DNA of 64,000 bases, from assembly GCA_958009085.1 (NCBI GenBank), contig OY253671.1, positions 1 through 64,000 on the forward strand, written 5' to 3'. How positions within the stretch are numbered: position 1 is the stretch's first letter; each line of letters begins with the position of its first letter. Both the position numbers and the translations under genes were made by a program. This document shows positions 27,623 through 64,000 of the stretch, piece after piece. A model generated the notes under the pieces. The model had not been told where the DNA came from, searched no databases, and worked only from the letters and a program-made list of their open reading frames with translations. Origin of the DNA: Protoeuglena noctilucae. Lineage: Eukaryota.

Positions 27623-30600
27623 TCAGGGTGCCAGTCTGCCCCTCCACACCGCCTTGAGGTCCTCGCTGGCCTCGATGGACGGCTCCTCGTCCTCATCCTG
27701 ACCCAGCACCTTGAAGTACAACTGAGAGTTCCTGCGACAATTGTGACGGGGGGTGGGGGTGCTCACGGGGGGTAGCGATGTGGGAATGGGGGGGTGCAGT
27801 GGGTTTGTGATGTGGGTTTGATGAGACGGCGAAGGCGCGGGTGCGGTGATGCTGAGAGTGGGAATGGCTGTGGTACAGTCGCATGAGAGAGGGCAGAGAT
27901 GCCAGACATTAGCGCCCCATTGCCAACTGGAATGCGATGTCGCAGTGCCGCAGCGCCATGGCAACGCAAGACGGCAACGACTGCTCTCATCGCACATATA
28001 CACACACACATACGCAATCCCACCCCATTCCCTCCCTCGCCTCCCCGGGTTGATCTTGGCCCTCCGGGGCTCCGGCAGTTTGTTAGATAAATGCGCGATG
28101 CCCGCGTGCTGGAAGCCCCTCTGCATGAACCAGTCGGCGGTGCGTGTCGTGAGCAGCACCAGCTCCCGTATGCCCAGGTCCCTGGCTTGCTGTTCCAGGT
28201 ACTCCAGCAATGCGTCCCCGCGGCCGCCGCCCCTGGGGGAGTTTAGGGGAAGGGAGGGAGGTGAGTGCATTTGGATTGCATGGCATTGCATGGGACTGCC
28301 ATGGGTGGGGGGAAAGACCATAGGGAGGTGAGTGCACTGCGTTGCGATGCATGTGCATGGGACTGCGAGGGGTGGGGTTGGGGTGCCAGGCACACGCACG
28401 TGCAGATGGGGAGCATCCGAACAGCGCAGGATGGAGGGTGACTGAGTGACGCATGACGCATGCCTGGAGAGCTGAGTGCGCTCCCACACATTCACAAACC
28501 CCCTTCTCTCCCATTCACCTGTACTTGGAGTCCACCAGTCTGCCCCCATCTACTCTCACACACATACAATGCTCTCACATACATACATACACACCATGCC
28601 CTCACCTGTACTTGGAGTCCACCACGAACGCCCCCACCTCCGCCATTCCCGAGGGCCCCCCGTCGCTGTCAGGCAGCGGCACCAGAAACGCGCACGCCAG
28701 CACGCGCGCGTCCCTCTCAATCACGTAGTAAAAGGCCAAATCACGCGATATGTCGTCCAGCGATCTGGGTGCGAGGATTCCCGCTTCTACCAGAGGGTGC
28801 AGCAGAGCGTCGATGGATTGCAAATCGTCCGGTCGCGCATGCCGGCAACCCTCGTAAAAGTCCCGGGAGACCATCGTGCCCACGCCGTCGCGGGTGTAGA
28901 GCTCTAACAGAAGGCCGCCCCTGCGAGGGGTGTGTGGGTGGGGGTTATATGAGCGGAGGGAGGGAGTGAGGGGGGTGGGGATGAGCAGGGGTGTCAAGTT
29001 AAGAGGGACGCGAGTGTGAGGGTGAGGGTGTCAAGCAAACACGAACATCATAAACATTCCTTTCTCGTAGGAACGTCCCTCGATGCACACGTGTACATGT
29101 GCTTGCCATGACCATTCCACCACCACCCCGTACCCCCTCGCCTGTCGCGAATGTCCACCAGGCTATCTGTGCATGTGTGTACATGTCTGTGCCCTCTCCA
29201 CCACCACCCCATACCCCACCCCCCCTCGCCTGTCGCGTATGTCCACCAGGTGCGCCCGCTTGACCCCCGCCCTCAGCGCCGCCACCGCGCACGACAGCTC
29301 CCACGGCGCCCCCTCCACGAACCAACTGTCCAGATCCACAGGGACGTCCGCGGGCGACGCGGGGAGGGGCTTGCCGGGGCGGGAGGGGCCGCGTGCCAGG
29401 ATGCGGTTGAAGGCGAACTGGCGGATGAGGTCCTCGGCGTCCTGGAGCCTGCGACGGGTGAATGGGTGGGGAGGGGTAAGTGAAAGTAGGGTAAGCAAGA
29501 GATGTGAAAACAAGGGATAGAGTGAGCACGGGATGGGCAAGTATGAGGTCCTCGGCGTCCTGGAGCCTGCGATGGGTAAGGGAGGAGTGGGGTGGGGTGG
29601 GGTTGGAAGTGTGAGGGACGAGCTGAGGGAGGTGTTAAGTGAGGCAACATTGTGAAGGCTTCCTGTCGCCTCGCCTGAGCAATCTGGGAAGTTCTTATCA
29701 GCAGCTCATGCATCTAATCACCTGAGCCACTTGGGCAGCTCCAGCTGCTCGATGTCGTTGAGGGTGTGGAAGATGATCTTGTCAGCCTGGAGCGCGGTGG
29801 CCGTGGCAGTGGCCACCTCGTAGATGTTGCAGTTGAGGACGTGGCCACCCGCGGACGCACCCAGATTGCTGACCAGCACGATATGGTCTCTCTCCAACAG
29901 CGCTTGTATGTCATCGGCCGCCACCAAGCGCACCTCGCCCGTCTGACCGAAGTCCACCCCGTCCACCACCCCCCTCCTTTTGGCCACCACGAAGTTGCCA
30001 GACGAGACGCTCGCGACGGGGCGGAAGTGGAACGCCTGCATGGTGCGCTGGTGGCGCCGCACCATCGCCACGCTCGGTCCCTTGGACAGTCGCGCCTCCG
30101 CCAGCGCCCGCACCACCCCCGCCGCCTCCATCGATGCGACCAGCGACGCGGGGCACGTGATGCGGTATTCCCCGTGGAAGCTGGACGACACGCCTCGGGC
30201 AGCCAGGCGCTGCTGCAGCTGCGGGAAGCACCCCAGCACCAGCACCACCCGCACGCGCAGGGAGTGCAGGAGGGAGAGGTTGTCGAGCACCTGTTCCACG
30301 ATCGCAGGATCCTCGAAGGCCTCGCCTGTATAATAAGGGGGTTTGAGGGGGAGGGTGAGGGTGTGTGTGTCATGAAGGGGACACATGGTACAGGCAAACA
30401 GGAGGTGGAGAGGGGCAGAGAGGGACAGGGGGGGCACAGGGCATGCTGCGGGTGTGTCAGAACCACATGTTGCTAGCTACCCATGCAGTACATACAACTC
30501 TTATGCACTACAACATCCCAACACATGCCCCACCCCACCCCCTCCCCCTCACCCGGCACGACCACCACGAACGTCTTGCCCCGGTGGCCGGCGATGTAGG

Positions 30601-31159
30601 GCGACGCTTGCATGAAGAATTTGACGAAGCTGTGCGACTCGGGAGACGCCTCTCGACGACCGGACGCTGCCCCTCCCGTGCCCGCATTCCCCTCTGCACC
30701 GGGCCCGGGTTCATACGTCTCCACTCTCTTCATCACGCGGTCGTTCCAGCTGTGAAGGTAGCCAGAGGACACGCTGGGTCCCAGGCCATTCGCGCCGCCG
30801 TTGCCTTTGACAGGAGTGGGGGACGCGGAGGGGCTGGGCTGCTCTGCGGGCAAAACAGGGGGGCCGGCGTGCGGGGAGGCGCGTCGCGGGGGAGGAGAGT
30901 CGCCGCGTTGGAATCTTGCAAATGTAAATATGCGCAAACGCACCTCTCTCCGACCCCGCGTCCGCTCCGCCGGCGGCCGAGGGAGCCCGGAGGCGCGGGC
31001 GGGTCACCCCGGCATCCCGACCCCGCCGCGCGTCAGGACCGCCCGAAGCATACGCACGCGGATGGAGAAAAATACCGGCTTTGACCCGCGCCGGTGTCGG
31101 GCTGCGTGCGGCGGGGGCGGCGACGCGATGGGCGCACGGTGTGCGGGACGCCCCTTCAT
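27623..31159 (-). CDS. argA: Amino-acid N-acetyltransferase (N-acetylglutamate synthase; AAK + GNAT domains)
   Basis: FVKFFMQASPYIAGHRGKTFVVVVPGE, GVVDGVDFGQTGEVR, GVKRAHLVD..GGLLLELYTRDGVGTM, LLTTRTADWF, RNSQLY. The 5' exon and start are uncertain. Confidence 0.93.
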
Positions 31160-31799
31160 GCACGTGCGCGCCGATCGTGGGCCGCGACGCCGCTCGGAGC
31201 ACGCCAGCGGGCGATTGTGATACAACACGTTCGTGGAGTATGCGACAGGCCGCGGCGAGGGGCGCGCGCGGCCCCCCGGGCGGTGCGAGCGCGTCACCTC
31301 CCACTGTGGCGCAGAAGGGGCCCACGAGGACCGGGAAGGACGCCTGAGGCCCCGGCCATACCCAAACCGACAAACGTGCAGCTGCGGCGCCCGGCACGCT
31401 GATATTCTTACTATTTCTCCCGAGGTGGCAAGCGCAGGGCTGCGCTCTCGATATCTCGGGATCCGTGGGGCGAACTAGAGCAGGATGCCGTTACCACTGC
31501 AGAAAAGCGACACTCAGGTGAGGAATGGTTGTGTTGACAGATGCGGGGAACGGGTTTGCGGGGAGAAAACCTGCCAGCTCCTGGCGACTTGGACCTTCCT
31601 CGCTGCCACGCAAATAAAGCGTTGGCCACGCCGTCGATGCAGACGCCATGCTCCCGTTTCCGATCGATCGCCTGCATCTGTCTGCGCCTGCAGCGCCGCA
31701 TCCCTGCGCGGCACTGGTGTGCCCAAGTGTGTGCTCGAGTGCTTGCTGGGAGTACAGCAGATCCAAAACCTTTCAGAGCCAATCCCGTCCTCCGCCGCA

Positions 31800-32850: not shown

Positions 32851-33041
32851 ACGCCACTTTGTTGCATAGCTCCTATCCATCTTTTTCGCGAGCAAACGAT
32901 TCAAATTCCCGAGTCTGTCTATGGACACAAACGAACGCTGCGGTGTTATCAGGCCCCACTCGCACGCTGCGGTTGCGATGGACAACCCGCCTCCTGCTTG
33001 CAACACCGGTCCGCATGCCAACCCCATGCAACAACCATCCA

Positions 33042-40025
<6,984 letters not shown>

Positions 40026-41806: not shown

Positions 41807-44800
41807 TGGCATTCTCCGCTCTCTCCGCTCCCGCAGCGTCGCTCCCGGCTCCATCTACGGCATTCCCCGCGAGGAGTGGCTCGCTCTGCAGACTCCCGCT
41901 CGGTACCTGGGCAACGAGCACGGCTCCATCCACAAGTCCTTCGACGACGCAAGGGTGCGCTTCGTCATGACCTACCCGGGTGAGATGTGCGGGTGGGTGG
42001 GTGTGGGTAGCAGTGTGGATGTGGGTAGTGTGGGTGTGGGTGTCTCTCTGTGCGTATCGCCTTTCAGCCCTGTCGGCCCCATCTCAGTTCACCCCCACCC
42101 CTGCCCCTCATCTAGTCACCCCCGCCTGTCCGCAGAGATCTACGAGGTCGGCGCATCAAATCTGGGCCACGTCCTCCTCTACACGTGCCTCAACCGCGAG
42201 GAGGGGGTCATGTGCGACAGGGCGTACTTCCCGGGACCCGACATGGGTACGTGGGGGTGGGGAAATGGGTGCATTCATGGCATTATCTAACCCTGTAGCC
42301 TGTCGCGGCCTTCCCACCCCCTTCTGCACTCTGCCAACCGCACCCCTCAACCCCTCCCTCCGTCTCGGACTCCCTCACTCTCTCACCTCTTCCCCTGCAG
42401 TGGAGATGCTCGCTCGCCACGACCGCCCCCCGCTCATCACCATCACCCCCACTCTCCCTCTCACCTGCAGTGGAGATGCTCGCTCGCCATGACCGCCCCC
42501 TCTTTGCCGTCGAGTCCCGCCGCCCCCTCCGCGACTTCGATGCTTTGGGATTCTCTCTGGCATACGAGCTGGGGGGCACGAATGTGCTGGAGATGCTGAG
42601 GCTGTCGGGTGAGATAGTGATGATTAAGGATGGATGGTAACAGAGTGTTTGATGATGATAACAGCAGCCATCCAGTCTTCTATCCCTTTCTATTCAAATT
42701 TAAACCCATCCATGCCTATCTCACTATCTCTCTCTCCCCCTCTCATATCCCAGGCATCCCCATCACGCGCCAGGAGCGCATGGGCAGCGACAGGGCGGGG
42801 GCGTGGGAGGTGGGGGGTGGGTCGTGGCCGCTCGTCTTCGCGGGGGGGCCCACCGCCACCTCCAACCCAGAGCCGTTCAGGTGACAGAGGGAGGAATGTG
42901 AATAGTCACTGCGATGGGGTAGCAGCAATGCTGTGAATGATAAATATGAGAGGGGGAGGTGACGCGTCGCCCTCTGCACCCACGCCATGCACCCTCACAC
43001 CGCATCCCACCCCATCTGAGTCCAACATCTCCATATATACAACTCCATTTCACTCTCTTCACCTCTACCCCACCCCCCAACCCCCAGTGATTTCTTCGAC
43101 TTTTTCTGCATCGGCGACGGGGAGGACGCCCTGCCCGAGGTGTCCCGGTGCCTGGCGCGGTGCAGGGATTCGAATTTGAATCGGGAAGAGACCCTTTTCA
43201 AATTGGCCACGGAGGTGCGGGGGGTGTACGTGCCCGCTTTCTACGAGGGCATCCCCGGGTACGGGGGGGCGGTGTTTCCTACGCGCGAGGGCGTGCCAGA
43301 ACGCGTCGTCAGGAGGGTGGCCACGCCGGACCCATTCATGCAGGCGAGGGGGGATGGGGATGTGCGTGTGTGGGTGTGTGTGTGTGGGTGGGTGTGGGTG
43401 GGGTGTAACTCTGGCTTATTATCACTGCAGGCAAACGGACAGTCCCTAGTTGTAGTCACCACAAAGTGACTCAGTTAGACGACTAATACTGACACTTCTC
43501 AGTAACTGATCGTTTTCAATATGCTACTATTATGTGACTTACTTGCCCTCCCCCTCCCCCCCCAGGTGGGCCTGGTCCCGTTCGTGAGCACGGTGCATGA
43601 CCGCATGAGCATCGAGATTCGCAGGGGGTGCACGCGGGGGTGCAGGTTCTGGTGAGAGTGAAATGGGATGCGGATGCAGCGAGGGAGACGCTCGATAGTC
43701 TAATCATAGTAGCAGTAGTTGTTTGTTAATGCTTGGTCAATGCTGCCAGCAAGGATGCTCACTCTCCTTTCATCCACACAGTCTAGTAGTCACCATTACT
43801 TTCCTAACCAGCCACAACTTCTCTCCTCACCAATTACAACCCCTCTTCCCCCACCCACCCACAGCCAGCCCGGCATGCTCACGCGCCCCGCCCGTGACGT
43901 CGACCCCGACGATGTGGTGACTGCGGTGGAGGAGGGCATCCGTAAAACGGGGTACAACGAGTTCTCGCTTCTGTCGCTGTCGTGCTCCGACTACCTCTCC
44001 CTGCCATCCGTGGGCATTCAGATCAAGGTGAGGGTGGGAGTGGTGGGGTGGCAGTGGGGGTGGCAGTGGGGGTGGCAGCGAGAGTGCGATTGATACTAGT
44101 AATAGCCACACCCACACCCCCACCCACACCCACACTCCCCCCCCTTCCCCATCCCAGAATCGCCTGAAGGACGCCAACGTGGGCCTGTCGTTGCCCAGTC
44201 AGCGCGTGGATCGCTTCGACGAGACAATTTCGAATATGCTCACGACGGGGGGTGGCAAGAAGGGGGGACTCACCTTTGCGCCGGAAGCGGGGACGCAGCG
44301 GCTGAGGGACATCATCAACAAGGGGCTCACCAACGAGGAGCTGCTGAGGTGAGACGATGTTAGATAATGATAGTAATAATGGTAATAATATAGATTAGAC
44401 ATCATCAACAAGGGGCTGACCAACGAGGAGCCGCTGAGGTGATGAGGGGATGATGTGTTGCATATATATTGCTCTGTATATATGATGTGATCTGTATATA
44501 AGGTGTCATAACGTCTTCTATTCTGTTTTCTCTGCAGGGGCGTGCGCACGGCGTGGGACCAGGGGTGGCGGCAGGTGAGGGGCGGGGATGTGATGGGATG
44601 GCGGCTGCTATCGCATGTTATGGCCAGCCTCTGTTTTCATATCACTAACACTAAGCATCCAACCCCCCCTCTTCCCCCCCGGCATGTCAAGCTCTACTTC
44701 ATGATCGGCCTCCCCGGTGAAACGGACGCGGATGTGCTGGGCATCGCAGAGACGGTCGCGTGGCTGCAGAGGGAGTGCAGGAGGGGGAGGCAGCATCTTG

Positions 44801-47800: not shown

Positions 47801-48275
47801 ACAGTGGAGTTGATATATATGTATATAATGGAGTGAGAGGGGGTGCACGTGCACAGGGCGGGTTTCGACATGAGGTAGCCGGCCAAGGTGAGGGGGGGGG
47901 TGCGGGCGGGGGATGGGTCTGGGGGTGTGTGTGGGTGGTGGAGTGAGAGGGGGGGTTGCAGTACATGGAATTATCGGTAATGCTGGTAACACAGCTTATA
48001 CTGGTTCATTCAGTCTATTTTATCTCGTCCTTCACTCCCCCAGCCCCGTGTGGACCACCTGCGCCTGCGTCAGTTGGTGCAGTGTGTCACATCTCATCTC
48101 ATATCATCCCATCTTATATCTAAATCACTTATATCCAATCCACATCTCTGTCCTTCCCCCCCAGCCCCGCGTGGACCAGCTGCGCCTGCGTCAGTTGGTG
48201 CGGTGGGAGGGGTTCGCGGGGGCGGCCAGGGCGTTCAACAAGGGGCCGTGGGCAGGGCCACTTGAGACGAGGTGA
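41807..48275 (+). CDS. TIGR03960-family (B12-binding-type) radical SAM protein fused to a TIGR03936/DUF2344 domain, cyanobacterial type; about 16 introns
   Basis: PARYLGNEHG...TYPEIYEVGASNLGH, FAGGPTATSNPEPF, EIRRGCTRGCRFC (CxxxCxxC), LTFAPEAGTQRLRDIINKG, KLYFMIGLPGETDAD, FTPKPHTPFQW; C-terminal FSKSGDMVFIGHLD...RALRRAGLPV. The N-terminal exon is not resolved. Confidence 0.9.
45274..45380. repeat. (ATATT)n pentanucleotide microsatellite, intronic
   Basis: About 20 tandem atatt units fill most of an intron of the radical SAM gene. Confidence 0.95.
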
Positions 48276-49776: not shown

Positions 49777-52700
49777 ATGACAAAAGACAAACAGCCCGAT
49801 GGCCCGTCCGGGGCCCCTCCGCGGGTCAAGCAGAACCTGCGCGTGAAGGCTTCGCTCGAGGTCTTTTTCACGGGAGGTGTGTCACCGGAAGCCCGCCGCA
49901 AGCTGCGATGCGATCCTTCGCATCTATAAGGACCTTTACAGCCACTCCGGCACGCCTGCTCGGGCACCGGGGCGTCCCGGTTCGCTGCGGCACGAAGCCC
50001 GCCGATCCCGCCGCCGTCGCGCGCATCTCCCGCGCCGCGCCCCTCCTTCCGCAGGTTCCGTGGCCTTTTCTCGTACCGGCAAGCACCTGGCGTGCGCCTG
50101 CGGGGACGAGGTGAAGGTGCTGGACGCGAACACGGGCGCCGTGGCCGCCACGCTGCCCGGCGACGGGGAGGCCGTCACAGCGATCGCCTTCGCAGGTGAA
50201 CGATCGATATTTATTATCAAACACCAGCGCGACCGGTATCTCGCGCCCCCGAGCTTCGTAAACCTCGTTTCGCTCCTTGGTGACTCGCGCAGTGGACGGT
50301 CAGTCGGTGTTTGCGGCTTCCCGCTCCCTCACCAACCGCCGCTTCGCCCTCCCCGACGGCCGCGTGACGCGGTCGTGGCGCGGGCACTCTGCCCCGGTGC
50401 TGGACATGGCCTTGGATGCGTCCGGGTCTCTGCTGGCCACCGCATCGGCCGACGGCAGCGCGAGGGTGAGAGGCAGCGCCTCCAGGCCACCTGCGGGGGT
50501 AGTGATGATGAGTAAGGGAAGAGTGGGTGTGTATTGGTATGGTGGGCGTGACTCAGGGATGGGTGTTGTGGTGTGATGAGCAACAAGCTTCCCGTCACGC
50601 ACGCTTCCCTCACCACCACGCCTGCTCTCACCACCACCCTCACCCCCTCACCCCTTCACATCCAGGTGTGGGACGTGGATGCCGGCCACTGCACCCACGC
50701 CTTCCGCGGCCACAATGGCCTGGTGCTGCGGGCGTGCTTCCACCCGGACGCATCGCAGCCACGGTTGGCCACGTGCGGGGATGACGGGACGGTGAGGGAG
50801 AATATGCGATGTTGCTCATGCCTGTGAAGCTGTGTCACTCTCTCATCTATCTCGTTCTCTCTCTATATAGTTTATAGTTTTCCTCAACCCACCCCCACCC
50901 ACCGCTCCTTTACCCACCCAGTGTGCCCCCCCATGATGCCCATTATGCCCAATCCATTCCCACCCTCCCATTACCCCCTCAGGTGCGTCTCTGGGACCTG
51001 GTCCGCCGGTCGTGCTCCCACGTGATGAGAGACCACACCGCAGCAGTCACGGGAATGTGCTTTGCTGATGGCGGGAGGCTGCTGTTCACTTCGGGCAGGG
51101 ACAGGCGAGAGACGGGGGGAGAATAGCTGCAATTGGAGTGGACAGTTGGTAGTTGATAGTTGCGATGTGACTGGCACGGCAGGGAGTGGAGGCATGCAGG
51201 TTTGTTGCCATCAGTTATAAAATAAACAAGTATCAATTTCAAAAAAGAAACTTTCCTTTGCTCCTCACCCCTCTCATTGCAGCGTGGTCCACTGCTATTT
51301 GACGGACGAGGGTCGATTGGTGGGTGCCATCCCCACCTATGAGGCGATTGAGGGGGTGGCGGTGCTTCATAAAGATAGTCGATTCCCGGGATCGAAAGCA
51401 ACGGCACCGACGGAGCGGAAGGGGGCATTGAGGGTGGTGACGGTGGGGGAGAGGGGGCAGGTGAGTGTTGAGTGGGGTGTGAGTGGGCGAGAGCGTACGC
51501 TGTTGCGTGAGTGTGCGTCGTGATTGCTCTGACACCAACCACTGCCCTCTATCCGAATCGTACCTATAAACATAATTACCCTTATCTCTCCACTCCTTTT
51601 GTATCTCCCAGGTCAAGGTGTGGGACCACCTTTCAGGCCAGTGCATGTATGAACAGCCGCCCCCCATCACGACTGGCGCATCGGCCACTTACGCCGATCT
51701 GCTGCCAGTCCCCCACGATCCCGACTGTGTTCTGGCAATCACGTCTGACGAGAGGATGCTAATCGTGGGGCCGACTGAGGGGGCGGGGGAGGGGAGGGAG
51801 GCGTGGGCGGATGAGAGGGTGAGTTGGGGGGGTGGGATATGTGTATGGGTGGTGGCAGTGACAGTGTCAGTGACAATAAGCTGTTATTGATTGTTCCCAT
51901 CCGTTCGTGCTACTTTCATTGACAGTTATGCTTTGAGCTGTGAGTGGGGTTGGATGGCGACGGGTGTTGCGGGTGCTGCGAGGGTGGCATGGGTGACGCT
52001 CGTGATTACCTGAGAACGTGATAACTCATTCCTTTCTTCTCATCTCGCCCACCCGCAGAGTGGCCTGTCTGCCTGCGTGCGCCGTGAGTGGGTGGGCAAT
52101 GTGGGGGAGGTGACAGACGTGCGATTGGTGGCGGTGGGGGGGGGGGAGGAGCCGACGCATGTGACAGTAGCAACCAGCGCAGAGACGGGTGAGGGGGGGT
52201 GTTGAATGGGGGTGGCAGTGAGTGGGGTTGATGGTGGTAGTGGCAGTGATAGTGGCAGTGGCGACAAGCGCAGAGACGGGTAAGGGGGTGGGGTTGAATG
52301 GGGGTGGCGGCAACTGAGGTGGGAGTGAGAGTGCCAATGGAGGTGGTCTTGAGGGTGGGAGTGGGGGTGGTGATGAATGCGGCAGCGAGGGTGGCAGTGA
52401 GGTGACACCCCCCACTCACCCACACCCACCCACACCCACTCTCCTCCCCCCCTCAGTGCGCCTCCATCGATTGGCGACATTGGAAGCGGATGTCTCTTTC
52501 CGCGGTCACACGGATGCGGTGTTGGGATTGGACGTGCATAAGCGGAGGGTGGGGGGGGCGTGGCGGGCGGCGGTGGCGACGGGGGGGAAGGATGCGGGAG
52601 TGCGGGTGTGGGATGCGGAGACGGGGGCGTGTTTGGTGAGTGATGGTGGGAGTAATAGTGCGAGGGATAGTGATTGTTATTGACAGGGGTGGTTGCAAGG

Positions 52701-55530
52701 ACTCGGGGGTGTGGGTGCAGTTGCCAACCCGTGTCACTCCCCTTTTCCCCCTTTCGCACCATTTCATCCTCTCCCATCCCTCTCATCTTATCCACTCTCA
52801 TTCCTCTCTCTCTCAATCCGCAGGCCATCGGCGAGGGCCACCTCAGCGCCGTGTCTCACCAACACTGATCTCTCCATCAATTTCCATTTCTCTCATCTTA
52901 TCCACTTCAATCCCTCTCTCATCCACTCTTATCCCTCTCAGGCCATCGGCGAGGGCCACCTCAGCGCCGTCTCCGCCGTCGCCTTCTCCCCGACTGGCGG
53001 TTTACTGGCATCCGTGGGGTCAGACAAGCTGCTCAAGATGTGGGACACGAAGGCGGTGCTCAAGGCGTGGGGGTGAGTTGGAAGAATCGAGTTAGGGTGA
53101 ATTGACTGATATTTGAAATGTGGGACACGGGGGCAGTGCTCAAGGCGTGGGGGTGAGTTGTGAGAATGGGGGGGGAAGGGTTAGAGTGGGTGGATGTGCG
53201 ATGGGTGACCGGTTGCGGTCATCATTCTGCAAAGATGACTAGAGGCCGTCTTTTGTACTCGCTATATCAACCAATAATAAATGTTACATCGCTCCCCTCT
53301 CTCTCCTCCCCGCAGCAAGGTGGTGAAGGGCGGGGGTGCGTCGCAGCTGCCACTGATGGACCCCAAGCCCCTCACAGCACGATCCGGGGTGGCAGCGCAT
53401 GACAGGGACGTGAATTGCGTGGCGATTGGGCCGACGGGGGTAGTGGTGGCGACGGGGGGGCAGGACAAGCTGTGCAAGATATGGGACGCGGAGACGCTCA
53501 CGCTCACGCTCACGCTGCGGTGAGGGTTAGAGTGAGAGAGTGATTGTGATTGTGATTAGGAGTGTGACTGACTGTGCAAGATGTGGGACGCGGAGACACT
53601 GACATTGACGCTCACGCTGCGGTGAGGGAGGGTGGGGTTGGGGTTGGTGGGTGGCAGGGGTTGGGGTGATGACAGAGGTTGAGCAGTGCGAACCTACTCT
53701 TACCCACACCCACGCCCTCTCCCTTACTCTCACCCGTCACTCTCCCTTCCTCTCCCCCACTCTCCCTCACCCCCCTTCAGCGGCCACAAGCGCGGCGTGT
53801 GGGGCGTGTGCTTCTCCCCCATAGACCGCGTCGTGGCAACCTCAAGCGGAGACCGCACCGTCAGGCTGTGGTCACTCAGAGATGGGGCGTGCCTCAAAAC
53901 ACTCGAGGGACACAACGGCAGCGTGATGAGGAGCGTGTTCGTGTCGCAGGCGAGGGTGGCAGAGGGGGTGGAGGTAGTGGGGTGGTGGTGGCAGTGGGGG
54001 TGGCAGTGGGGGTAGGATTGTTGGTATAAGCCGCCCCCACCCCCACCCACCCAACCCACGTCTACTCCCTCGCCCATACCACCCCCAGGGCACCCAGCTC
54101 CTCACCTGCAGTGCGGACGGCCTGTTGAAGCTCTGGTCATCCGCGACCGGCGAATGCACGGCCACTTTCGATCGCCATTCGGATCGAATCTGGGCGGTGG
54201 ATGCGGGGGGTGCGGGGGACGGGGTGGCGGTGACGGGGGGGGCGGATGCGGCAGTGCGGGTGTGGGAGGACTGCACGGCAGAGGACGACGCGGAGAAGAC
54301 CAGGTGAGAGTTAATTAGATAGGGACGATAAGGTGGTGGTGGTAGTGGTGGTGGTGGTCGTGGTCGTGGTGGTAGTGGTGGTGTTGTGTGGGAGGATTGT
54401 ACGGCGGAGGATGATGCAGAGAAGAGCAGGCGAGGAGATGGATAGTGTTGGTGATGATAATGGTGGTGGTGGTGGTGGTGGTGGTGGGTGTGTTAATATC
54501 ATGTGTAACATACATATGATTTTTCTATAAGCTAGAAATACCATTTTCCACACTCACTCCCCCCCAGGCAAGAGGCGGCGCTCGTCGCCAAAGAGCAGGC
54601 GCTTGGCAACGCGATGCGAGGCGGCCATTACGCCAAAGCAGCCAGGCTCGCGTTGGAGTTGGGGCACCCCGGTCGCATGCGGGAGGTGGTGGGGGAGGTG
54701 CTGGGGACGGAGGGGGGTGATAAAGCGCTGGAGGGGCTGTGCGGGGCGATGGGGGCCGAGCATGTACGGGTGGCGATGGGGTGGGCCAGGGAGTGGAACA
54801 CGTCGCATAAACACTGCCACGTGGCGCAGGTGAGACTTTAGTTTGAAGGGGTCTGTTTATGTAATGTGCAATGTATTATCTTCCATAAACACCCACCCAC
54901 CCTGAGCTCCTCACCTCTCGCTCACCATCTCCCCTCACTCACACACACACACACACACACACTCCGTCGCACTCCCTCATTCTTCACTAACACCCACGCT
55001 CCTCCCTTATCCCCCAGGCCCTCCTCCGCGCCATCCTGGCCACCCATCCCCCCTACTCCCTCCAATCGATGCCCGGGGCACGCGACATCATCGAGGGACT
55101 ATTGGCCTATTCAAAACGACACATGGCACGAATGGATCGTGCTGTGAGGTCCACGTACGTCCTGGACTACGTGCTCGCCAGGATGGCCGTGCTGCAGCCG
55201 GAGGGGAAAGGGGTGCTTGAAACGGGGGCAGAGGGTGGGGGTGGGGAGGAAGTGGGGGAGGGGGGGGATGCGGGAGAGGGGGAGGGAGTGAGGAAGCAGC
55301 GTGGCGGTGGGGAGAGTGGTGGGGAGGGAGGTGGGGAGAGTGGGCATAAGAAGAGGCGTGGGGAGGGAGAGGGGAGGGAGGCTGCGGTGGTTGCGAAGGG
55401 GAAGAAGAGGCGGGGGCAGGGGGAGGGGGAGAAGGTGGGAAAGAAGAGGGTTAAGGGAAGTGCGGGTGTGGAGGGGGATGGAGAGAGGGCGGGTGCGATG
55501 AGGAAGGGGAAGCGGATGGCAAGCGCGTGA
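49777..55530 (+). CDS. UTP13: U3 snoRNA-associated protein 13 / transducin beta-like 3 (WD40 repeats + Utp13 C-domain)
   Basis: LEVFFTGG start; many WD40 repeats (GHSAPV..., GHNGLV..., AHDRDVNCVA, GHKRGVWGVCFSPIDRVVATSSGDRTVRLW); C-terminal WNTSHKHCHVAQ...LLAYSKRHMARMDRAVRSTYVLDY. Confidence 0.93.
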
Positions 55531-55702
55531 GAAATGAGTACTAGAGGGCGGCTGTGCTTGTTGCCGGGCCGGCAGCGCAGCGCTGCGGCGCGCAGTGACA
55601 TGATAAATGTCGCGTTTGCTCGCGTTTGCTTGCATCATAGCCAGATGTTAAGGTTGAAAGATGTTTACGAGGCATTCACCGGGCCGCTACGAGGCCCTTA
55701 GA

Positions 55703-57210: not shown

Positions 57211-60200
57211 ATGGCGATTGCGGAGGACATCCGGCAGGGCGTCCTCTGCGTGGGCCCGCGATGCCCGCCGGCGTACGAAAAGCGCAGCCGCGTGCGTCTG
57301 ACGCGGTTCAAGAACCACGAGAGGTGCGGTGCGGGAAGCTGGGGCCGCCTCGTGAGTCACCAGAGCGGGCGTTGGCATCGGCATGTCGCGGCCTACCCGG
57401 GGCCCTTGCGCGACCCGCGGGGGGTGGCGGAGGTTGGCAGGCCGGAATCGGGGATAAATTTGCGTATCTGTGCACACTCGCATTGCCATCGGTGGCCCTC
57501 TCTGCCCCGCCGCCCCCGATACTCGCCCGTGGCGATGCGCCCCTTCCGCGCCCGTCCCCGCACTCCCCTGCGCACCTCCCGCCGCGCTGACGTCCACCCA
57601 ATATACTTTATTTACAGGATAGGCGGCAGGAGTCCCTGGTCGGTGTTCCGCGCGCTGGACACGAGCACGGGTGGCATCGTGATAATCAAGGTGTTGGATT
57701 TGGGCGAGGCAAAGCCGGAGGTCCGCGAGGACGTCCTAAAAGGAGTCCATGTGCACGCGAGACTTGGTGAGAATCGGAGCCGGACCCGACGCGATGGGCG
57801 TGAGACTGCTGGGGTGCTGCATGGTGGGGTGTGGTCCGCAACCCCACACATTGCCTTATCGACTGTGCCCCGCCGACCACCCCCGCATGCCCCCACATTG
57901 CCCATCACCTGTGCCCCGCACACCTCATTCCCGCATTTTCCCATCACACCTGTGCCCCGCAGACCACCCCCACATCGCCCCACCTTGCCCCCATCACCTA
58001 TCTGCCCCGCAGACCACCCCTACATCGCCCCTCTGTGGCTGGCGTTCCGTGAGGGTGACCTGCTGGTCCTGCTGATGCCCGAGGCCCGGGGGTCGCTGCG
58101 GAAGCTCTTTGGGAACGTGTGCCGGGACGAGATGTCAGTCGCGAAGGTGAGAGAATGGGAGGGGTGGATGTTGGTAGTGGTGATAGTGAGAGAGATGTCG
58201 GTGGCCAAGGTGAGAGAATGGAGAGAGAGGGGTGTTGGTAGTGGTGATAGTGAGGATGGTCAAGAGAGATGTTGGTGGCGAAGGTGAGAGATGGGGTTGT
58301 TGTTGGTGATGGTGAGGAGAGAGATGTCGGTGGCGAAGGTGAGGCAGCAGTGAGAGAGAGATGTCCGCATCCACCCACCACCCCACACCTGTCTTCCCCC
58401 ACTCAATCACTCCCACCATTCACCTCTCCTCGCCCTGCCCAACTCAGCCGCACACACCACCCCACACAATCACACCCACCACTCCACCCCACCCCCCTTA
58501 ACCCCCCCAGAAGGTCATCCTCCCCCTCCTCTCCGCGCTCGGCCACATGCACCACTCGGGCCTGGCACACCACGACGTGGCGTTGGAGAACGTCCTCGTC
58601 AGTTTCTCGGGCCGCGTGATGCTGGCGGACCTACAGAGCGCGCGCGCCATGCCGCCCTCGTACAACGTCGACGAGGAGATCGAGCCTGGGTGGCAGAAGG
58701 TCACGTGGTCGAGTCGGGACCTGGTCTCCCAGGCGGAAAAGAAAAAGAAGGCGGAGGAGGAGCTGCCGGACAACGCGAGGTTCATGCGGGGGCGGTTCGG
58801 GTGGGCGGGGGACGTGTGGGGGATCGGGCTGCTGACGTGGGAGCTCATCAGCGCGGGTGAGGGGGGGGGGGGGGTGGATGTGGGGTGGGGTGGATGGTGT
58901 TGATGACCTGGGAGCTCATCAGCGCAGGCGAGGGTGGGGTGGATGTGGGGTGGGGGTTGGAGAGTGGGGTTGGGGTGGATGAGTGGGTGGGAGTGGGTGT
59001 CGTTAAAGTGGGGTGGTGAATGAGGGTGTCTGTCATCTCCTGAAGACTGACTAATCAGCTCAGCAATCGCGTGAATGTGAAATGTACCGCACCTGACTTA
59101 TCTACGCCTGCCCCACCCCCCCTTGCAGCGGTGCTGGGCGGCGTGATGCGTCTGCGTGGCTACGAGGGTTCAATCGACGACATCGTGCTCCGTCACGACT
59201 TCGTGTCTCTGATGCCCGAGGCCCAGGACTTCATCCGCAAGTGCCTGCGCACGCGGCCCATGCAGAGGCCCACGGGTGAGATGGACTGACTGGCTGACTG
59301 ACTGACTGTCCTTCAATTACAGCCACAGTAGAGACCCATGGGTGAGACACGGACTGACTGACTGACTGACTGACTGACTGACTGCATGGGACACGTCCGT
59401 GCGTGCATATGTCAGGGGTGAATGAGACACGATGCCCCTTACCAGCCCCCATCTCTCTCCATCCACCCCATTCATACCCCCCCGTTGTCGAGCAGCTCAC
59501 CACCACCCCCATGCCATATCACATCTAGTCTACTAGCTACCATTTACGCATCTCTCTCTCCCCCCCCCCCAACCGCAGTCGAGCAGCTCTACCACCACCC
59601 CTTCGTCACCCAGGCCGCCAGTCTGCTGTCGTGGATCCGCCAGAAACCACGGGCGCGCCAGGCGGCTGCAGCCAGGCACGGCCACGGCCGCACCCACGGG
59701 CCATTCCTGCCCATGGTCAACAGGCGAGTGCAGGCTGGGTGATTGGAAATGACCAAAAGTCATTAATTAACATGGATATGTGTATATCATCACAGACACG
59801 GTAGCATTGATGGTCTACAATAGCGATAGCAAAGTCGACGCACCACCCACTCTCACTCCCACCCCCTCTCTCCCACGCAGTGCGCTGTCCGCCGCACCCC
59901 CCGCGCTGCCCGAGTGGGCCAGGCCGGACGCCGACCGTCGCCGGTCCGCCAGCCTCGGCCCAGGGCCCCGCAGCAGCAACCCGGGGAACGCCACCGCCAC
60001 CCCCAACGTCCCCGCCGCATTGCGCGCCCCCACCGCCACCCCACCCACCGCCACTGCCACCTCCCGCGCCCCCACCGCCACCTCCGGGGCGCCCTTCCGC
60101 GCACCCCCGCCCCCCCCCCCGCCGCTCGCCTTCCCCCCCGGTGCCTCCCTCGGGGTCCGCCGCAGCGTGGCATCGCTGCCAGCCATCCTGTCAGAAACGT

Positions 60201-60508: not shown

Positions 60509-60731
60509 GCGGGTGGGATAAGTGATGTGTGATGTGTGACGGTGCTTGGTGAGGGCTGGCGATGTGTGCGACGGTCGATAACAACGAATGAATACATACA
60601 GTTTAATACTAACGTATGTACTTGACAGCATAGCACGGATATGCATGGATTGACGCTCGCAACGGTCGATAGCCCCATCAGTGCAACTCAAATGCACGAT
60701 TTACGAAGCACATTACATAAATTCCCTCTGT

Positions 60732-62512
60732 TCACATCAGCCGCAGCATCTCCACCGCGTATCTCCCCTTGGCCGTCTCAGTCACCGCCCGCACCTCCAC
60801 GCGCCCCTTCCCCGTGCACGATATGACGTCCCCCGCATGCACTGTCGCGCTGGGCTTAGACACCACGCGCCAGTTGACCTTGACGTCGCCCGACGAGACC
60901 AGGTCGGCCATCTGGGTGTGGTGAGAGGAGGGGGGTTGATGTTGGGGCAGTGAGGTTTGCGATTATGGGGAGCAATTATGGGAGTGACAAACACCAGGTC
61001 GGCCATCTGAATGGGGAGAGAGGAGGGGAGGGTGTGTGTGTGACAGTGAAGCTGTTATGAAGCCATCTGATTGGGGATGTCCATTCTCAAGTCCCCAATT
61101 ACAGAGCATTGGATTTGCTCAACACATTATCACCACCTGCCATGCCCCTTCACCCTCATCCCCCCTCACCTTCCCCCGGCTGACCCCGAACCCGGCCGAC
61201 GCCACCGCGTCGACCCTCAGCGACGCCTCCACGCTGCGCACCTCCCTGGCACGCGTCTCTGGCACGATGATGTCAGAAAACGGCACCTCTGTCACGGCCA
61301 CCGGCACGGTGCGTACGGAGGTGAGCGAAGCCGTCACGTGCATCGCCACCTCGCGTTTGATGAGCAAGTGGCATCCTTTCTCGCCGTTCACAATCACGTC
61401 CCCCACGCACCCCCTCTCGATGCCCGTCGCCAGAATGGCACCTAAAAAGTCGCGGTGGGTGGCGGGGTCGAAGAGGAAGTTGCCGTCCACCTGAAGGGTG
61501 GGAGAGAGGGGGGGTGGAGGGCGAGATGTGAGGTGTGAGGGTGGGGGGGTGCTGAAGTGATGTGGTGCAGTGACTGTAATCCACCTGCACAGCAGTGATG
61601 CAATGTGATGGGGAGCAGGGGCGCAGGTGGGCAGTAACCAAACGTACACACCGCCACTACCCCACTCATGACAACACATCGCAAGTGTCCACAAGTAAGC
61701 TAAGCTAATTGTAGTAAGTAAACCTTTGCATCCAATCGCAACTACCATCACCTGCAGCGCCGCGATGCCCTCCGCAGCCGCCCCCTCCTCTCCCAGCGCC
61801 CCCACCACCTCGGGATGCCCCACCACCAACGCACGACGCTCGGCACCCGCGTACCCGCCCACCGCCACGCCAGAGGCAGATGCGAGGCGGGAGAGGGCAT
61901 CTAGCGCTGATTGTTGCACGGGAGGATAGAAGAAATCCGTTGTCGCTGCGGGCGGGGTGCGGGAGAGGGTGGGCGAAGGGAAGCGTGGGTTGGGGATGCC
62001 AATGCACATTAAACGGGCTGCTCCGTGTATCTGGCGGGTCCTCGCCTGTGCTCCATCGGTCGGCTGCTGATTCTGCCTTTTCCAGCACGCGCTCGACCAT
62101 CGCCCTCGTCTGCGCGAACGAGGAGAGTCGAGAAACTCGCGCCGAGTTGCAACCCGGTCCCTCGCGTGGCACGCGCAGGGCGTCCGGCGCTGGTCTGCGC
62201 GTCCAGAGCATATCACCTCTTGATCCAAATGCTGCACGAAGCTGGCGTATCGCTGGGCGCTGCGGGGAGGGGCCGCGCGGCATCGATGAAGGTGCAGACC
62301 CACACGCAGCGCCGCGAGCGAGCGGCCGATGTCGATTGCGCGCAAGTAAAGCACAAGATACTTTGGGTATCAAAGTCCTCGGCATACCTGGCGGCGACGT
62401 TACGCTGCCGGCAACGTAGCTGCTCGGCTGCGGGGCTGCGCGTCGGTCTCCGGCTGCCCAGGCCGGCCCATCGAGCCCGCCGGGCGAGGAGGCCGAGAGG
62501 TGCGCGATGCAT
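60732..62512 (-). CDS. YlmH/Sll1252-family photosystem II S4-domain RNA-binding protein
   Basis: TDFFYPP, GGYAGAERR, GNFLFDPATHRDFLGAILATGIER..VGDVIV, EASLRVDAVASAGFGVSRGK, GDVKVNW...GKGRVEV; TGA at 60732. Confidence 0.92.
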
Positions 62513-62780
62513 AATGCCGCAGAGCACAGAGTGAGACAGCCGGAGGATGGATTAAGCGGCCAACGGTGACTCTCTTAGCAACCACCTCCACGACGGCCAC
62601 GCGTCTGAGAGACCGCAGCGCTGATCAATGGCGGATTGCGCACGACAGACTGCAGAACAGCAGTGACATTTTATCGGCAGCACATGACACGCGCAGCGAC
62701 ACGTGCCAGCAACGCTCGCGCCAGACCATCGATTCAATGTCGTGTTTACAGCTGCGCTGTCAACTCCCATCCCACGCAGC

Positions 62781-64000
62781 CTATCTCCCCCGCCCACGCT
62801 CCTCATCCCTCTCCCTGCCCCTCCCCCAATCCCTGTCCCTATCTCTCCTATCCCTCTCTCTGTCCCGATCTCTATCCCGCTCCCTCTCTCTATCCCGCTC
62901 CCTATCCCTCTCCCTCTCTCTATTCCTGTCCCTATCACCACCACCACCACGCTCTCTCCATCCATCTCCACGCCCCTCACCCCTCCACCGCCCATCCCCA
63001 CGACCCCCACCCCTGTTGCCACCCCTCTCACGCTCACCGCCCCTCTCACGCTCACGCTCGCTACCCCTATCCCTGTCCCTGTCCCTCTCCCTCTCTCTCT
63101 CTCCACCCCTCCCATCCCCCCTCTCCCTCTTCCCCCCACCCCACTCCCCCCCCCTCCCCTCCTCCCTGCCCCTCTTTCGCCCATCCCCCCTCCCACCCCC
63201 CACCCCCCCCACCCCCTCATCCCCCAACAGCATATCCGCACCCCCCCTCGCATTCCCCCCCATACCCATACCCATGCCCACCCTCGCCCCCCGCACCGCC
63301 CCCTCCTTTATTTCAATGTTAGACCACGCGCCCTGGCCGCCCCCACGCACGTGACTGCGAAGGGGAATAGAGATGGGAATGGGGATAAGAAGTGGTGTGT
63401 GCATCTACTTCCATCACCGGTAATGTGATTGCTACCAAAGAATATGAACCACAATCTCAACTATCACAACTGATAATCTATTGTCCACACTGATAGACTG
63501 TTACCATTCATTAATAGTACTTAATACTATTAAGTAGCATCCCCCCCTCACCGGTCTGCCTCGGCCGCCATCCCCGCGTCCCCCCCCCCTTTCCCCCTCA
63601 ATTTGAATTGCTTCCATAGCTTGGCCACCGATTGAGAGAAGTCCACCTTGATGCGGCGGTCGTCGATCAGGCTGGGGGGAGTGGGGTGGGGAATCCACAT
63701 TGATTAGTATTACTGAGAACTAACCAACATCTTGAAGTACGCTTCACCCACCTATTATTGTCCATCAAGTAAAGTATACTATATATTAGTATACTTAGTA
63801 TATAGTATACTAGTATATTTACTATGTACTAGTATATTTATGCACAACCCATCCCTCACCAGTTGTTCATCTTGAAGTACGCCTCCTCGGCCGCCTGCTC
63901 CGATTCGAACCCGATGAATCCGTAGTTGAGACTGTCGCCCGTCTTGTAGTCGCGAATGATGTTGCAGTCCACCACCTGAGATGGGTTGGGGAAGGAATGA
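62781..64000 (-). CDS. PPIL4: RRM-containing cyclophilin CYP59/PPIL4, 3' part (5' end lies beyond the window)
   Basis: [55 protein letters not shown] followed by an RD/RE-rich tail; TAG at 62781. Confidence 0.9.

Follow-up and report, generated by a model that had tools for sequence, protein, structure and literature searches.

The 64,000-nt window, the whole stretch of DNA that we analysed, comes from a marine green-alga-like genome and carries, with gene identities backed by Pfam, genes for NAGS/argA, a UCH protease, a radical-SAM/DUF2344 protein, Utp13, a kinase, an S4-domain protein and an RRM protein. In these genes an exon end together with its splice site recurs in the same orientation 40–140 nt away in the adjacent intron; we term such a copy an echo. 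Exon models were built with a simple gene finder and manual fixes, and were independently confirmed only at three argA and three RNA-contig junctions. They yielded 111 predicted introns, that is, 222 junction sides, and for each side the 60 terminal exon nucleotides plus 10–15 intron nucleotides were aligned to its own intron. The top score in a reversed-intron control of the 222 sides, 14.5, was taken as the cut-off, and 23 of the 222 real sides scored 15–42.5, above every control, with 14–50 exon nucleotides copied at offsets of 47–182 nt (NAGS/argA, 3; UCH protease, 1 plus 2 low-confidence cases; radical-SAM/DUF2344, 6; Utp13, 5; kinase, 4; S4-domain, 1; RRM, 1). A preliminary description of the window had claimed copies of exon ends with their splice sites in these same genes, and on both counts it was borne out.

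The echoes are direct and local only. Alignment to non-adjacent introns gave no score above 14.5 at any of the 222 sides, reverse-complement copies exceeded it at only 1 of 222, and each accepted echo includes the splice site, keeps the orientation of the exon and sits within the adjoining intron. An ungapped self-comparison of the window (offsets 20–400, low-complexity rows excluded) left 32 local direct repeats, 20 rows of which are junction copies 50–192 nt apart, consisting of an exon end followed by GTGAG/GCGAG or of CAG followed by an exon start. The echo-bearing part of the window measures about 36 kb: 23 of the 118 junction sides at 27–64 kb have an echo (about 1 in 5), versus 0 of 104 at 1–27 kb, a neighbour region that is intron-rich too. 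In the list below, X1 and X5 denote de Bruijn contigs assembled run by run from the read sets of two separate studies, X5 being a marine metagenome; offsets are in nucleotides.

27157..27290, plus strand: stop-codon repeat; a second copy of the last 12 codons and TGA lies in the 3′ UTR at a distance of 60 nt downstream, and part of a third unit is also present.
28515..28639, minus strand: NAGS exon end 28606–28639 with GT donor; echo 28515–28551, offset 87–88; identical core of 23 nt, 1-nt indel further upstream.
29133..29250, minus strand: NAGS exon end 29230–29250 with GC donor; echo 29133–29162, offset 88; one synonymous difference (ATA/ATT), spacer homologous to the next unit.
29425..29577, minus strand: NAGS/argA exon start 29425–29448 with acceptor flank; echo 29543–29577, offset 118; 24 exon nt without change, one difference in the flank.
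35024..35430, minus strand: two low-confidence cases in the UCH gene, low-complexity insert; a 19-mer that resembles an exon end, with GGTGAG, arrayed in multiple copies (family D6), and one 20-nt pair.
38591..38733, minus strand: UCH protease exon start 38591–38617 with acceptor; echo 38695–38733, offset 104.
42386..42500, plus strand: radical-SAM exon start 42471–42500 with acceptor; echo 42386–42430, offset 70–71; one synonymous difference (CAT/CAC); bridged by X1 and X5.
44308..44442, plus strand: radical-SAM exon end 44308–44348 with donor; echo 44398–44442, offset 90; AT-rich spacer; bridged by X1 and X5.
45984..46157, plus strand: DUF2344 exon start 46125–46157; echo 45984–46033, offset 124–126, without AG.
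47309..47483, plus strand: exon end 47309–47345 with donor, radical-SAM/DUF2344 region; echo 47437–47483, offset 128; family D10, echo donor GC.
47726..47895, plus strand: exon end 47726–47770 with donor, radical-SAM/DUF2344 gene; echo 47843–47895, offset 117, containing an in-frame TAG; bridged by X1 contig record 4.
48027..48205, plus strand: exon start 48165–48205 with acceptor, same gene; echo 48027–48084, offset 121–123; bridged by X1 and X5.
52161..52288, plus strand: Utp13 exon end 52161–52188 with donor; echo 52252–52288, offset 91; spacer homologous to the next unit.
52821..52973, plus strand: Utp13 exon start 52942–52973 with acceptor; echo 52821–52855, offset 118; family D19.
53038..53160, plus strand: Utp13 exon end 53038–53072 with donor; echo 53118–53160, offset 80; bridged by X1 and X5.
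53470..53628, plus strand: Utp13 exon end 53470–53519 with donor; echo 53572–53628, offset 102; six differences, five in third codon positions; bridged by X1 and X5.
54260..54434, plus strand: Utp13 exon end 54260–54303 with donor; echo 54386–54434, offset 126; six synonymous differences and one non-synonymous, echo donor GC.
57866 (approximate)..58031, plus strand: kinase exon start 58013–58031 with acceptor; two upstream echoes, 57953–57981 and about 57866–57893; family D18; bridged by X1 and X5.
58129..58343, plus strand: kinase exon end 58129–58146 with donor, unit 1 of a 4-copy array; periods 63, 74 and 55, echo starts 58192, 58266 and 58321; family D17; bridged by X1 and X5.
58832..58937, plus strand: kinase exon end 58832–58856 with donor; echo core 58903–58937, offset about 67–71; echo donor GC; bridged by X1 contig record 6.
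59477..59601, plus strand: kinase exon start 59579–59601; echo 59477–59509, offset 90, with a 1-nt deletion and AG gone.
60898..61021, minus strand: S4-domain gene exon start 60898–60911 with acceptor; echo 60993–61021, offset 95.
63728..63885, minus strand: RRM gene exon end 63868–63885; 18-nt echo 63728–63745, offset 140; the weakest of the pairs accepted, scoring 15.5.

Exon copy, spacer and echo lie in series on single, independent contigs: of the 16 pairs in the 20-kb stretch compared, 13 are bridged by X1 contigs and 8 by X5 contigs, in every case with 0 differences. The concern raised in the preliminary description, that each molecule holds one copy and the assembly merged two, is thereby excluded as far as the contigs show. 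Nothing pointed to a second haplotype or a paralogue either: the X1 contigs contained no variant letters, and across 20 kb a single 1-nt indel was all that set the metagenome apart from the window.

At the junctions visible in the data, mature RNA leaves the echoes out. Three transcript-derived NAGS proteins (539, 552 and 552 aa; two from Logan, one from JGI) cross three echo-bearing junctions and contain each peptide once: LQDAEDL is single at the 29425–29448 junction, VVDSKYR/GGGRGD is present once in protein P0005 at the 28606–28639 junction, and P0005 also confirms the junction at 29230–29250. RNA contigs begin at or join canonical sites (46125, 58511 and 60911/61170); X10 record 10 begins at 46124, leaving the DUF2344 echo outside that RNA, and X10 record 15 splices 60911 to 61170 with the S4-domain echo absent. 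No echo splice site was used in the transcripts seen, which cover few junctions in thin RNA and are blind to rare or NMD-degraded isoforms.

Gapped alignment of exon and echo (21 pairs, 196 codons; both UCH cases at 35024..35430 were kept out of the codon counts) gave 31 synonymous and 19 non-synonymous changes. The synonymous skew of the preliminary count, about 33:11, persisted at a smaller size, and three synonymous differences of that count, in the 47726 pair, are equally readable as two 1-nt indels in GGG/TTT runs. The synonymous share was 62% in the true frame versus 15% and 13% in two shifted frames, which ties the skew to the true reading frame. Its excess over neutral expectation varies with the mutation model (P from 0.0002 to 0.18): uniform and transition-biased nulls expect synonymous fractions of 0.36 and 0.41 against the observed 31/50 (P = 0.0002 and 0.002), and transition/GC/CpG-biased neutral models expect 0.48–0.55 against 0.62 (P = 0.03–0.18). 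Set against neutral simulation, as proposed earlier, the skew is thus larger than simple nulls allow but within reach of strongly GC/CpG-biased ones. GC and AT mutability at codon positions 1 + 2 were 4.4% and 4.8%, showing no GC excess, so that the biased models that rescue neutrality lack support in these data.

Codon positions 1 + 2 differ at 18 of 392 sites (4.6%), versus 16.3% at third positions and 18 of 189 (9.5%) in the co-duplicated intron flank; the first value is about half the last, as would be expected if the intronic copy alone were free to change at positions 1 + 2. Where a CpG stands in the exon copy only, the transition fell on the synonymous member 10 times and on the non-synonymous member 0 times (NCG and NNC/G contexts; a post hoc count), and CpG losses in either copy (10 exon-only, 7 echo-only) fell almost only on synonymous members. 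Because strand polarity is opposite in NCG and NNC/G, strand bias cannot account for the 10:0 ratio. The divergences of the 21 pairs fit a single age (chi2 17.1, 20 df), uniform and exponential age distributions were rejected (P = 0.006 and 0.0008), and none of the pairs was identical. Together, the CpG ratio and the uniformity of the pair ages are a hint of a single episode, which may have involved diverged alleles.

The echoes show signs of decay. They hold one in-frame stop codon and 3–4 frame-breaking indels, and their acceptors keep AG in 7 of 9 cases and have lost it in 2 of 9. All 12 readable echo donors have G at +1 and a pyrimidine at +2, then GAG/AAG, with GC where the exon has GT in 3 of 11. 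Given the stop codon, the indels, the lost AGs and the model-dependent excess, the coding constraint on the copies that had been proposed is not established; the mostly synonymous differences are intriguing and fall short of proving a new system.

We infer that the echoes are probably short tandem duplications across a splice junction, harmless leftovers beside outermost splice sites that stay in use. A duplicated unit of about 50–140 nt that has one breakpoint within an exon and its second within the neighbouring intron would place the exon end and its splice site in two copies. If the outermost sites stay in use, meaning the donor that comes first or the acceptor that comes last, the spliceosome would remove the inner copy with the intron, at the sole cost of about 100 nt more intron. 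Wholly exonic duplications would be purged by selection and, as introns measure just 100–200 nt, most tolerated duplications would straddle a junction. The intronic copy could then decay freely and the exon copy change only synonymously, an asymmetry that alone would skew the differences towards synonymous ones. Slippage would scramble the low-complexity intron part of the unit faster, often leaving just the exon-derived part alignable.

Seven of the 21 spacers are significantly homologous to the sequence after or before the echo (P ≤ 0.01 versus shuffles; 19% mismatches), the signature of whole-unit tandem duplication. The other 14, several of them AT-rich (GC 0.22–0.36), have no detectable homology to the neighbouring unit, which counts against tandem duplication, as do the synonymous excess over simple nulls and the CpG ratio of 10:0; nor would independent neutral events spread over time predict the uniform divergence and the absence of echoes from 1–27 kb. 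FEN1/rad27 mutants form short duplications, tens to about 100 nt long, from unprocessed Okazaki flaps, and inter-allelic conversion at human minisatellites makes tandem duplications of the same size range and inserts repeat units of the other allele. For the mechanism here, both may serve as leads only.

The preliminary description knew of no matching system, yet an analogue exists in the 37-bp VNTR of human F7 intron 7, where unit 1 spans the exon 7/intron 7 boundary and the repeat creates 5′ pseudo-splice sites that are silent (Borensztajn et al. 2006, PMC1557585). There as here, unit 1 holds the exon end and the authentic donor, later donor copies are silent and the most upstream is chosen; the kinase array at 58129–58343 has exactly this layout. 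Unlike the single F7 locus, 21–23 of 118 junction sides in seven genes are affected here, acceptor sides as well as donor sides; most cases consist of just two copies that have diverged by about 10% and whose spacers are scrambled, and no copy-number variation was seen between two read sets. In the Rogers model (Hellsten et al. 2011, PMC3265369; Lehmann et al. 2010, PMC2891723), introns are gained when an exonic AGGT segment is duplicated in tandem, and there too a short tandem duplication doubles the splice signals and leaves a stretch of exon sequence within an intron. There, however, the intron arises from the duplication itself, is as long as the unit and repeats the upstream exon end at its 3′ end, whereas here the intron is pre-existing, the copy lies on its splice site's side and introns are 2–4 units long. 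Direct repeats at the borders of introns, interpreted as footprints of insertion (Rogers and Bendich 2025, PMC11782384), and introner target-site duplications (Gozashti et al. 2022, PMC9860276) likewise contain splice-site sequence and are read as scars of DNA insertion or repair. Those repeats, 4–30 bp long, have one member at the 5′ border and the other at the 3′ border of a single intron; the echoes, by contrast, measure 25–58 nt, pair a border with an internal intron site and enclose DNA of no repeat family.

Unequal crossover between diverged alleles, one of the routes suggested earlier, is still alive within a wider reading that we consider unlikely. The two copies would stem from non-identical functional alleles, joined by unequal crossover, inter-allelic conversion of the minisatellite type or replication template switching between diverged haplotypes, and each echo would be the fossil of the other haplotype's exon end, different from the start mainly at synonymous sites and since decayed. 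If only exons were still homologous, the switches may have fallen at exon/intron borders, in one regional episode. Three results would be covered by adding one parameter, namely alleles that initially differed by about 0.09 per silent site: the third-position divergence relative to positions 1 + 2, the 19% mismatch of intron parts where alignable and the CpG losses in both copies. The CpG pattern, the uniform divergence and the confinement to 27–64 kb suit a single episode or tract. The allelic reading is also favoured by the intron at 47771–48164, which the pairs 47726..47895 and 48027..48205 share in a nested layout: the outer spacers, AT-rich and 72 and 78 nt long, stand on either side of an inner block made up of an exon end, 156 nt of intron and an exon start, with near-equal backward offsets (117 versus 121–123). 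However, such deep divergence is hypothetical, as a second haplotype or paralogue leaves no trace in the contigs today; the excess so explained comes to only about 11–14 differences, and loss of young identical repeats together with a detection limit could also yield uniform ages.

A role of the echoes as spare splice sites that would regulate or buffer splicing where introns have lengthened, be it as decoys, in recursive or nested splicing or as in-frame cassette micro-exons, is very unlikely. The donor motif kept in 12 of 12 and the AG kept in 7 of 9 would fit such a role, GC for GT in 3 of 11 would be a specific weakening, and a gene finder can thread three echoes as in-frame micro-exons. 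Retention of the motifs is, however, no higher than about 10% divergence predicts, the transcripts seen, in which rare or NMD-degraded isoforms would escape detection, use 0 echo sites, and a pattern in phase with the codons would not follow from a role in splicing.

Slightly more doubtful still is ongoing coding-type constraint, in which gene conversion or cycles of duplication and collapse swap copies into the exon and selection acts against non-synonymous variants of the echo. The synonymous skew and the CpG asymmetry speak for it, as does the Utp13 pair at 52821..52973, with 32 identical nucleotides (CAG + 29 exon nt) against a co-duplicated intron part only about 76% alike. Yet the stop codon and frame-breaking indels in the echoes are about as many as 4.6% divergence predicts, exchange visible to selection would be expected to homogenise the copies, and steady-state two-way conversion would give equal per-site divergence in both classes, without a synonymous excess. 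With silent divergence at about 0.2, conversion would exceed the mutation rate at most a few-fold and so be too slow for effective selection, which makes the swapping of copies into the exon proposed earlier quantitatively implausible.

Each spacer could formally be an insert between 25–58-nt direct repeats, and several are AT-rich, unlike their surroundings, as small introner-like or retroelement-like mobile insertions with unusually long target-site duplications over the junction would predict. Transposon target-site duplications are usually far shorter than 25–58 nt, seven spacers are homologous to neighbouring intron, and the spacers form no repeat family, sharing only short, low-complexity words and having no further copies within the window; we find this origin scarcely credible. 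An assembly artefact that set two alleles in series by haplotype merging or gap closing would suit the scaffolding indicated by a 200-N gap at 22980–23179 and the largely synonymous differences expected of alleles, but it is close to refuted by the serial copies in contigs of two studies, by arrays of 3–4 copies and by the restriction of copies to places that selection would tolerate.

The anatomy of a tandem duplication is also visible where the kinase donor forms unit 1 of its four-copy array, and the same kind of event has occurred over a stop codon.

The window is rich in introns, with a GC content of 56–79%, and an ungapped self-comparison at offsets of 20–400 nt returned 273 segments, reduced by a complexity filter to 32 rows, 20 of which were copies of exon–intron junctions. 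On the donor side, the last 20–50 nt of an exon and the following GTGAG or GCGAG recur in the same orientation about 50–140 nt into the adjacent intron; on the acceptor side, CAG and the first 14–41 nt of the exon do the same. We call the intronic copy an echo and the DNA between the two copies the spacer. Exon models came from our own codon-usage and splice-site exon chainer, with the strand chosen by coding signal, and contained 111 introns; because the chainer merged adjacent genes, the exon lists alone were used, with 5 exons removed and 4 inserted manually. At argA, exons and junctions match three transcript-derived N-acetylglutamate synthase (NAGS) proteins exactly, RNA contigs start or join at 46125, 58511 and 60911/61170, and Pfam verifies the kinase, Utp13, UCH, S4, RRM, DUF2344 and Tctex-1 identities; junctions beyond the NAGS and RNA-contig checks are predicted. 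The terminal 60 exon nt and 10–15 intron nt of each junction side were then aligned to the remainder of its own intron. Scores above 14.5 were obtained for 23 of 222 sides (15–42.5), with 23 of 118 sides positive at 27–64 kb versus 0 of 104 at 1–27 kb. Across the same 222 sides, no score exceeded 14.5 with reversed introns, none did with non-adjacent introns and one did with reverse-complement queries. Two of the 23 sides fall within an insert of low complexity in the UCH gene; without them, 21 pairs with 196 aligned codons remained.

The copied portion comprises 14–50 nt of one exon end and one splice site. For 7 of the 21 spacers, duplication can also be recognised in the intronic part of the unit (P ≤ 0.01 versus shuffles), with 61 mismatches in 314 aligned pairs (19%) and 13 gap columns; for the remaining 14, several of them AT-rich, the alignment is confined to the exon-derived part. 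The kinase donor opens a four-unit array with periods of 63, 74 and 55, and the kinase acceptor has two echoes upstream. A tandem array at 27157–27290 (+), with a period of 60–63, has as its first unit the last 12 codons and TGA of the gene at 26266–27195 and extends into the 3′ UTR; it represents the same type of boundary-spanning duplication, at a stop codon instead. The echoes are probably junction-straddling tandem duplications, the inner copies of which are silent and decaying. A duplicated unit that spans an exon border would leave a spare exon end and splice site inside the intron, and this inner copy, being silent, would decay afterwards. Introns measure 100–270 nt (median 156 in one part of the window and 224 in the other) and units are about 100 nt long, so a duplication that leaves the coding sequence untouched must in most cases cross a junction. 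Much of what echo-bearing introns have gained in length appears to come from such duplications, which scatter intact spare splice sites through them. If so, the window is a natural example of intron lengthening, with a bearing on the evolution of intron size and on how a short-intron spliceosome chooses among near-identical sites. Hairpin arms were rejected as a driver of copying, as the folding of two echo-bearing introns was no more stable than that of shuffled sequences (z −1.1 and +0.4).

A full-text literature search turned up no account of introns that frequently contain same-side copies of exon ends, though such an account may still exist in print; it did find one precedent. In the human F7 intron-7 minisatellite (PMC1557585), the first unit crosses the exon boundary and the downstream pseudo-donors are silent. 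The layout here is the same: the first unit of the kinase array spans the exon–intron boundary and the echoes keep functional-looking splice sites. Canonical splicing, which would parallel the outermost-site use in F7, was seen at three NAGS and three RNA-contig junctions. In the model of intron creation by duplication of an AGGT-containing exon segment (PMC2891723), a second copy of the upstream exon end forms the 3′ end of the intron, which is one unit long, whereas the introns with donor-side echoes are 188–394 nt long and hold the echo 63–140 nt from the donor, not at the acceptor. Unlike tandem exon duplications or mutually exclusive exons, echoes contain one exon end and one splice site, never a whole exon with both.

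The 21 pairs show 79 differences in 835 columns, with a dispersion within single-age expectation (χ2 = 17.1, 20 df); uniform and exponential age distributions were rejected (P = 0.006 and P = 0.0008, respectively), and none of the 21 pairs is identical. Loss of young identical repeats and the detection limit could mimic this single-age look. Taken with the 0 of 104 sides in the adjoining 27 kb, it suggests an episode or regional event over a steady trickle, from which the density (about one in five junction sides over 36 kb), the similar ages and the absence next door are unexpected. The left part is free of echoes except for two borderline, echo-like matches, at 10741–10904 (−) (score 14.5, offset 40) and 23468–23667 (−) (score 12.5, offset 70), which may be older, more decayed events.

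Exon and echo differ at 31 synonymous and 19 non-synonymous positions (Nei–Gojobori, gapped alignments, 21 pairs), so that dS is 0.23 and dN 0.042, a dN/dS of 0.18 versus 0.5 expected, the 50 differences being unpolarised; counted in the two shifted frames, 15% and 13% of differences are synonymous. The analysis as a whole draws on these 50 differences, our own exon models and this window alone, with minimal RNA and population data. The observed share was compared with a neutral null in which the echo is free to change and the exon changes synonymously only, the expected share being set by the mutation model.

Expected synonymous share under neutral null models
Uniform: 0.36, P = 0.0002
Transitions ×3: 0.41, P = 0.002
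Transitions ×3 and G/C sites ×3: 0.48, P = 0.03
Transitions ×3, G/C sites ×3 and CpG ×5: 0.52, P = 0.11
Transitions ×3, G/C sites ×3 and CpG ×10: 0.55, P = 0.18

The preliminary description had claimed a synonymous skew beyond neutral decay. This stands against the uniform and transition-biased nulls, but a strongly biased neutral spectrum reproduces the excess, the outcome that the description itself had named as telling against it. Two observations speak against settling for such a spectrum. First, at codon positions 1 and 2, change is no more frequent at G/C sites (9 of 204) than at A/T sites (9 of 188). Second, where a CpG is present in the exon copy only, the echo has a transition at the synonymous member in 10 cases and at the non-synonymous member in 0 (NCG and NNC/G contexts), the affected strand being opposite between the two contexts; CpGs in the echo only number 7, at synonymous members. 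This symmetry test is post hoc and covers 17 sites. Exon-specific CpG hypermutation was rejected as a complete explanation of the skew, exon-only CpGs (10) being as common as echo-only ones (7). Third-position divergence is 16.3%, and 10 of 17 exon codons ending in A/T differ from the echo.

One assumption would cover the surplus of third-position changes, the CpG pattern, the 19% divergence of intron parts, the evenness of the ages and the restriction to one region: that the copies were born different, with the same anatomy and the two copies derived from diverged alleles in one episode. We give this a modest chance only, as the present data contain no second haplotype and the metagenome differs from the window by one 1-nt indel in 20 kb. 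Should the synonymous and CpG pattern hold genome-wide, the echoes would sample ancestral or foreign alleles of many genes in preserved form, and would serve as a new kind of internal clock that also records how a marine alga hybridised, or how diverse its alleles were, in the past. A fuller version, which we consider improbable, makes them fossil alleles, left by repeated switching within one episode between two deeply diverged haplotypes (for example, through hybridisation or by exchange in a non-recombining, mating-type-like region), such that the synonymously diverged exon ends of the other haplotype remained in introns. Replication or recombination would have switched about 100 nt out of register at exon–intron borders, only exons being still homologous, and introns would have grown from about 150 to 250–400 nt in a single burst, leaving a datable record of a lost haplotype.

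Ongoing coding constraint on the echoes, as the preliminary description proposed, would fit the low exon–echo dN/dS and the 10:0 CpG asymmetry, but it is unlikely: the echoes carry one in-frame TAG (pair at 47726) and 3–4 frame-breaking indels, and some have lost the acceptor AG. Divergence at positions 1 and 2 is 4.6%, half of the 9.5% in the co-duplicated splice-site flank, as predicted for a freely decaying copy beside a constrained partner. Nor can gene conversion that swaps copies into the exon, also suggested there, account for the third-position excess: we infer that conversion at a rate visible to selection would wipe out a silent divergence of about 0.2, and that two-way exchange predicts zero synonymous excess.

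A splicing function is likewise unlikely, even though all 12 readable echo donors have GT or GC followed by RAG and 7 of 9 echo acceptors keep AG (lost in 2 of 9). The duplicated peptides occur once in each of the three NAGS proteins, across KWLR/LQDAEDL, VDIRDR/GGLLLE and VDSKYR/GGGRGD, and neither the echo at 46004 nor that at 60993 is included in the RNA contigs there. Splicing is canonical at the 6 of 21 junctions visible in spliced RNA, three of NAGS (three transcripts) and three covered by RNA contigs; no echo-site use was seen in these NAGS transcripts or RNA contigs, a thin sample that rare use could escape. GC–AG introns are present in two genes:

29221–29229, − strand, NAGS GC donor, GCGAGG after 29230, junction backed by transcript-derived protein
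53950–53955, + strand, predicted Utp13 GC donor, GCGAGG, exon end most plausibly at 53949

The echo donor is GC where the exon donor is GT in three pairs (47345, 54303 and 58856). The contigs shown from one RNA set (X9) span exons and flanking intron, indicating unspliced RNA or DNA carry-over, and the table of RNA-contig joints is dominated by repeat joints and gives no readout of echo-site use. A 619-nt contig of another RNA set (X10, record 11) covers 53315–53610 (+) without a break, passing from the Utp13 exon across the spacer into the echo. Its match ends at 53610, from the base after which exon and echo are identical again. Unspliced RNA is one possible source of this contig, a graph switch between exon copy and echo another.

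A mobile-element origin of the spacers, as in introners or transposon target-site duplication, is unlikely since they form no repeated family: all-against-all matches were at most 20 nt and all low-complexity, and no further copies occur within the window. An assembly artefact is unlikely too. The preliminary description had allowed that haplotype merging might have set single copies side by side, which is contradicted by DNA contigs holding both copies in series. On 42000–61999, contigs of the organism-labelled run (X1) bridge both copies in at least 13 of 16 pairs, and those of X5, a marine metagenome belonging to a different study, in at least 8 of 16, among the pieces listed, with 0 differing letters and 0 gaps. 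X1 is possibly the assembly's own source and X5 is independent, both consisting of short-read graph contigs; no copy-number difference was seen between these two near-identical read sets. A paralogue as echo donor was rejected, no variant letters at 90–99% identity being found over the exons in X1. A 200-N gap at 22980–23179 indicates that the source is a scaffolded assembly.

By the NAGS search, the organism lies closest to green algae and plants (53% to a pedinophyte). Protein searches found the organism's own transcripts with NAGS only, and not with a Utp13 or a DUF2344 exon; a metagenome scan for relatives' DNA with a Utp13 exon yielded two WD-repeat loci, both distant (identities of 42% and 33%) and of no use for polarising changes. 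Two genomic-ORF proteins from different public contigs (P0070 and P0075) differ by one residue within 28921–29030 (−), an intron in the real gene, indicating some natural variation there. Adjacent genes at 15064–18000 and 19280–22170 (−) have closely similar predicted multi-pass membrane products, which we take from their translations to resemble Na+/H+ exchangers, and about 10 short introns each (about 95–210 nt) with 0 echoes. Introns at 27–64 kb in general (for example, 53520–53780 and 58147–58510) are strongly strand-asymmetric: on the sense strand, the 5′ half is rich in G and T and the 3′ half in C and T. Long microsatellite or minisatellite tracts lie at 45235–45395, 37786–37982, 36386–36577 and 62760–63270, the types being (TATAT)n, (CATCA/CATCG)n, (TGCNNN)n (inside the UCH gene, where the sequence is predicted to be coding or is of low complexity) and a stretch rich in C. 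Introns of several genes share a G-rich minisatellite of 12 nt (GGTGGCAGTGGG-like; 44028–44092, 37334–37477, 52208–52399 and 53952–54024, with its reverse complement near 45616–45657); it must be highly repeated genome-wide, as judged from an X1 contig word depth of 11102 in the 44001–44667 bin, versus about 100–180 elsewhere, and from the many contig joints that connect its sites.
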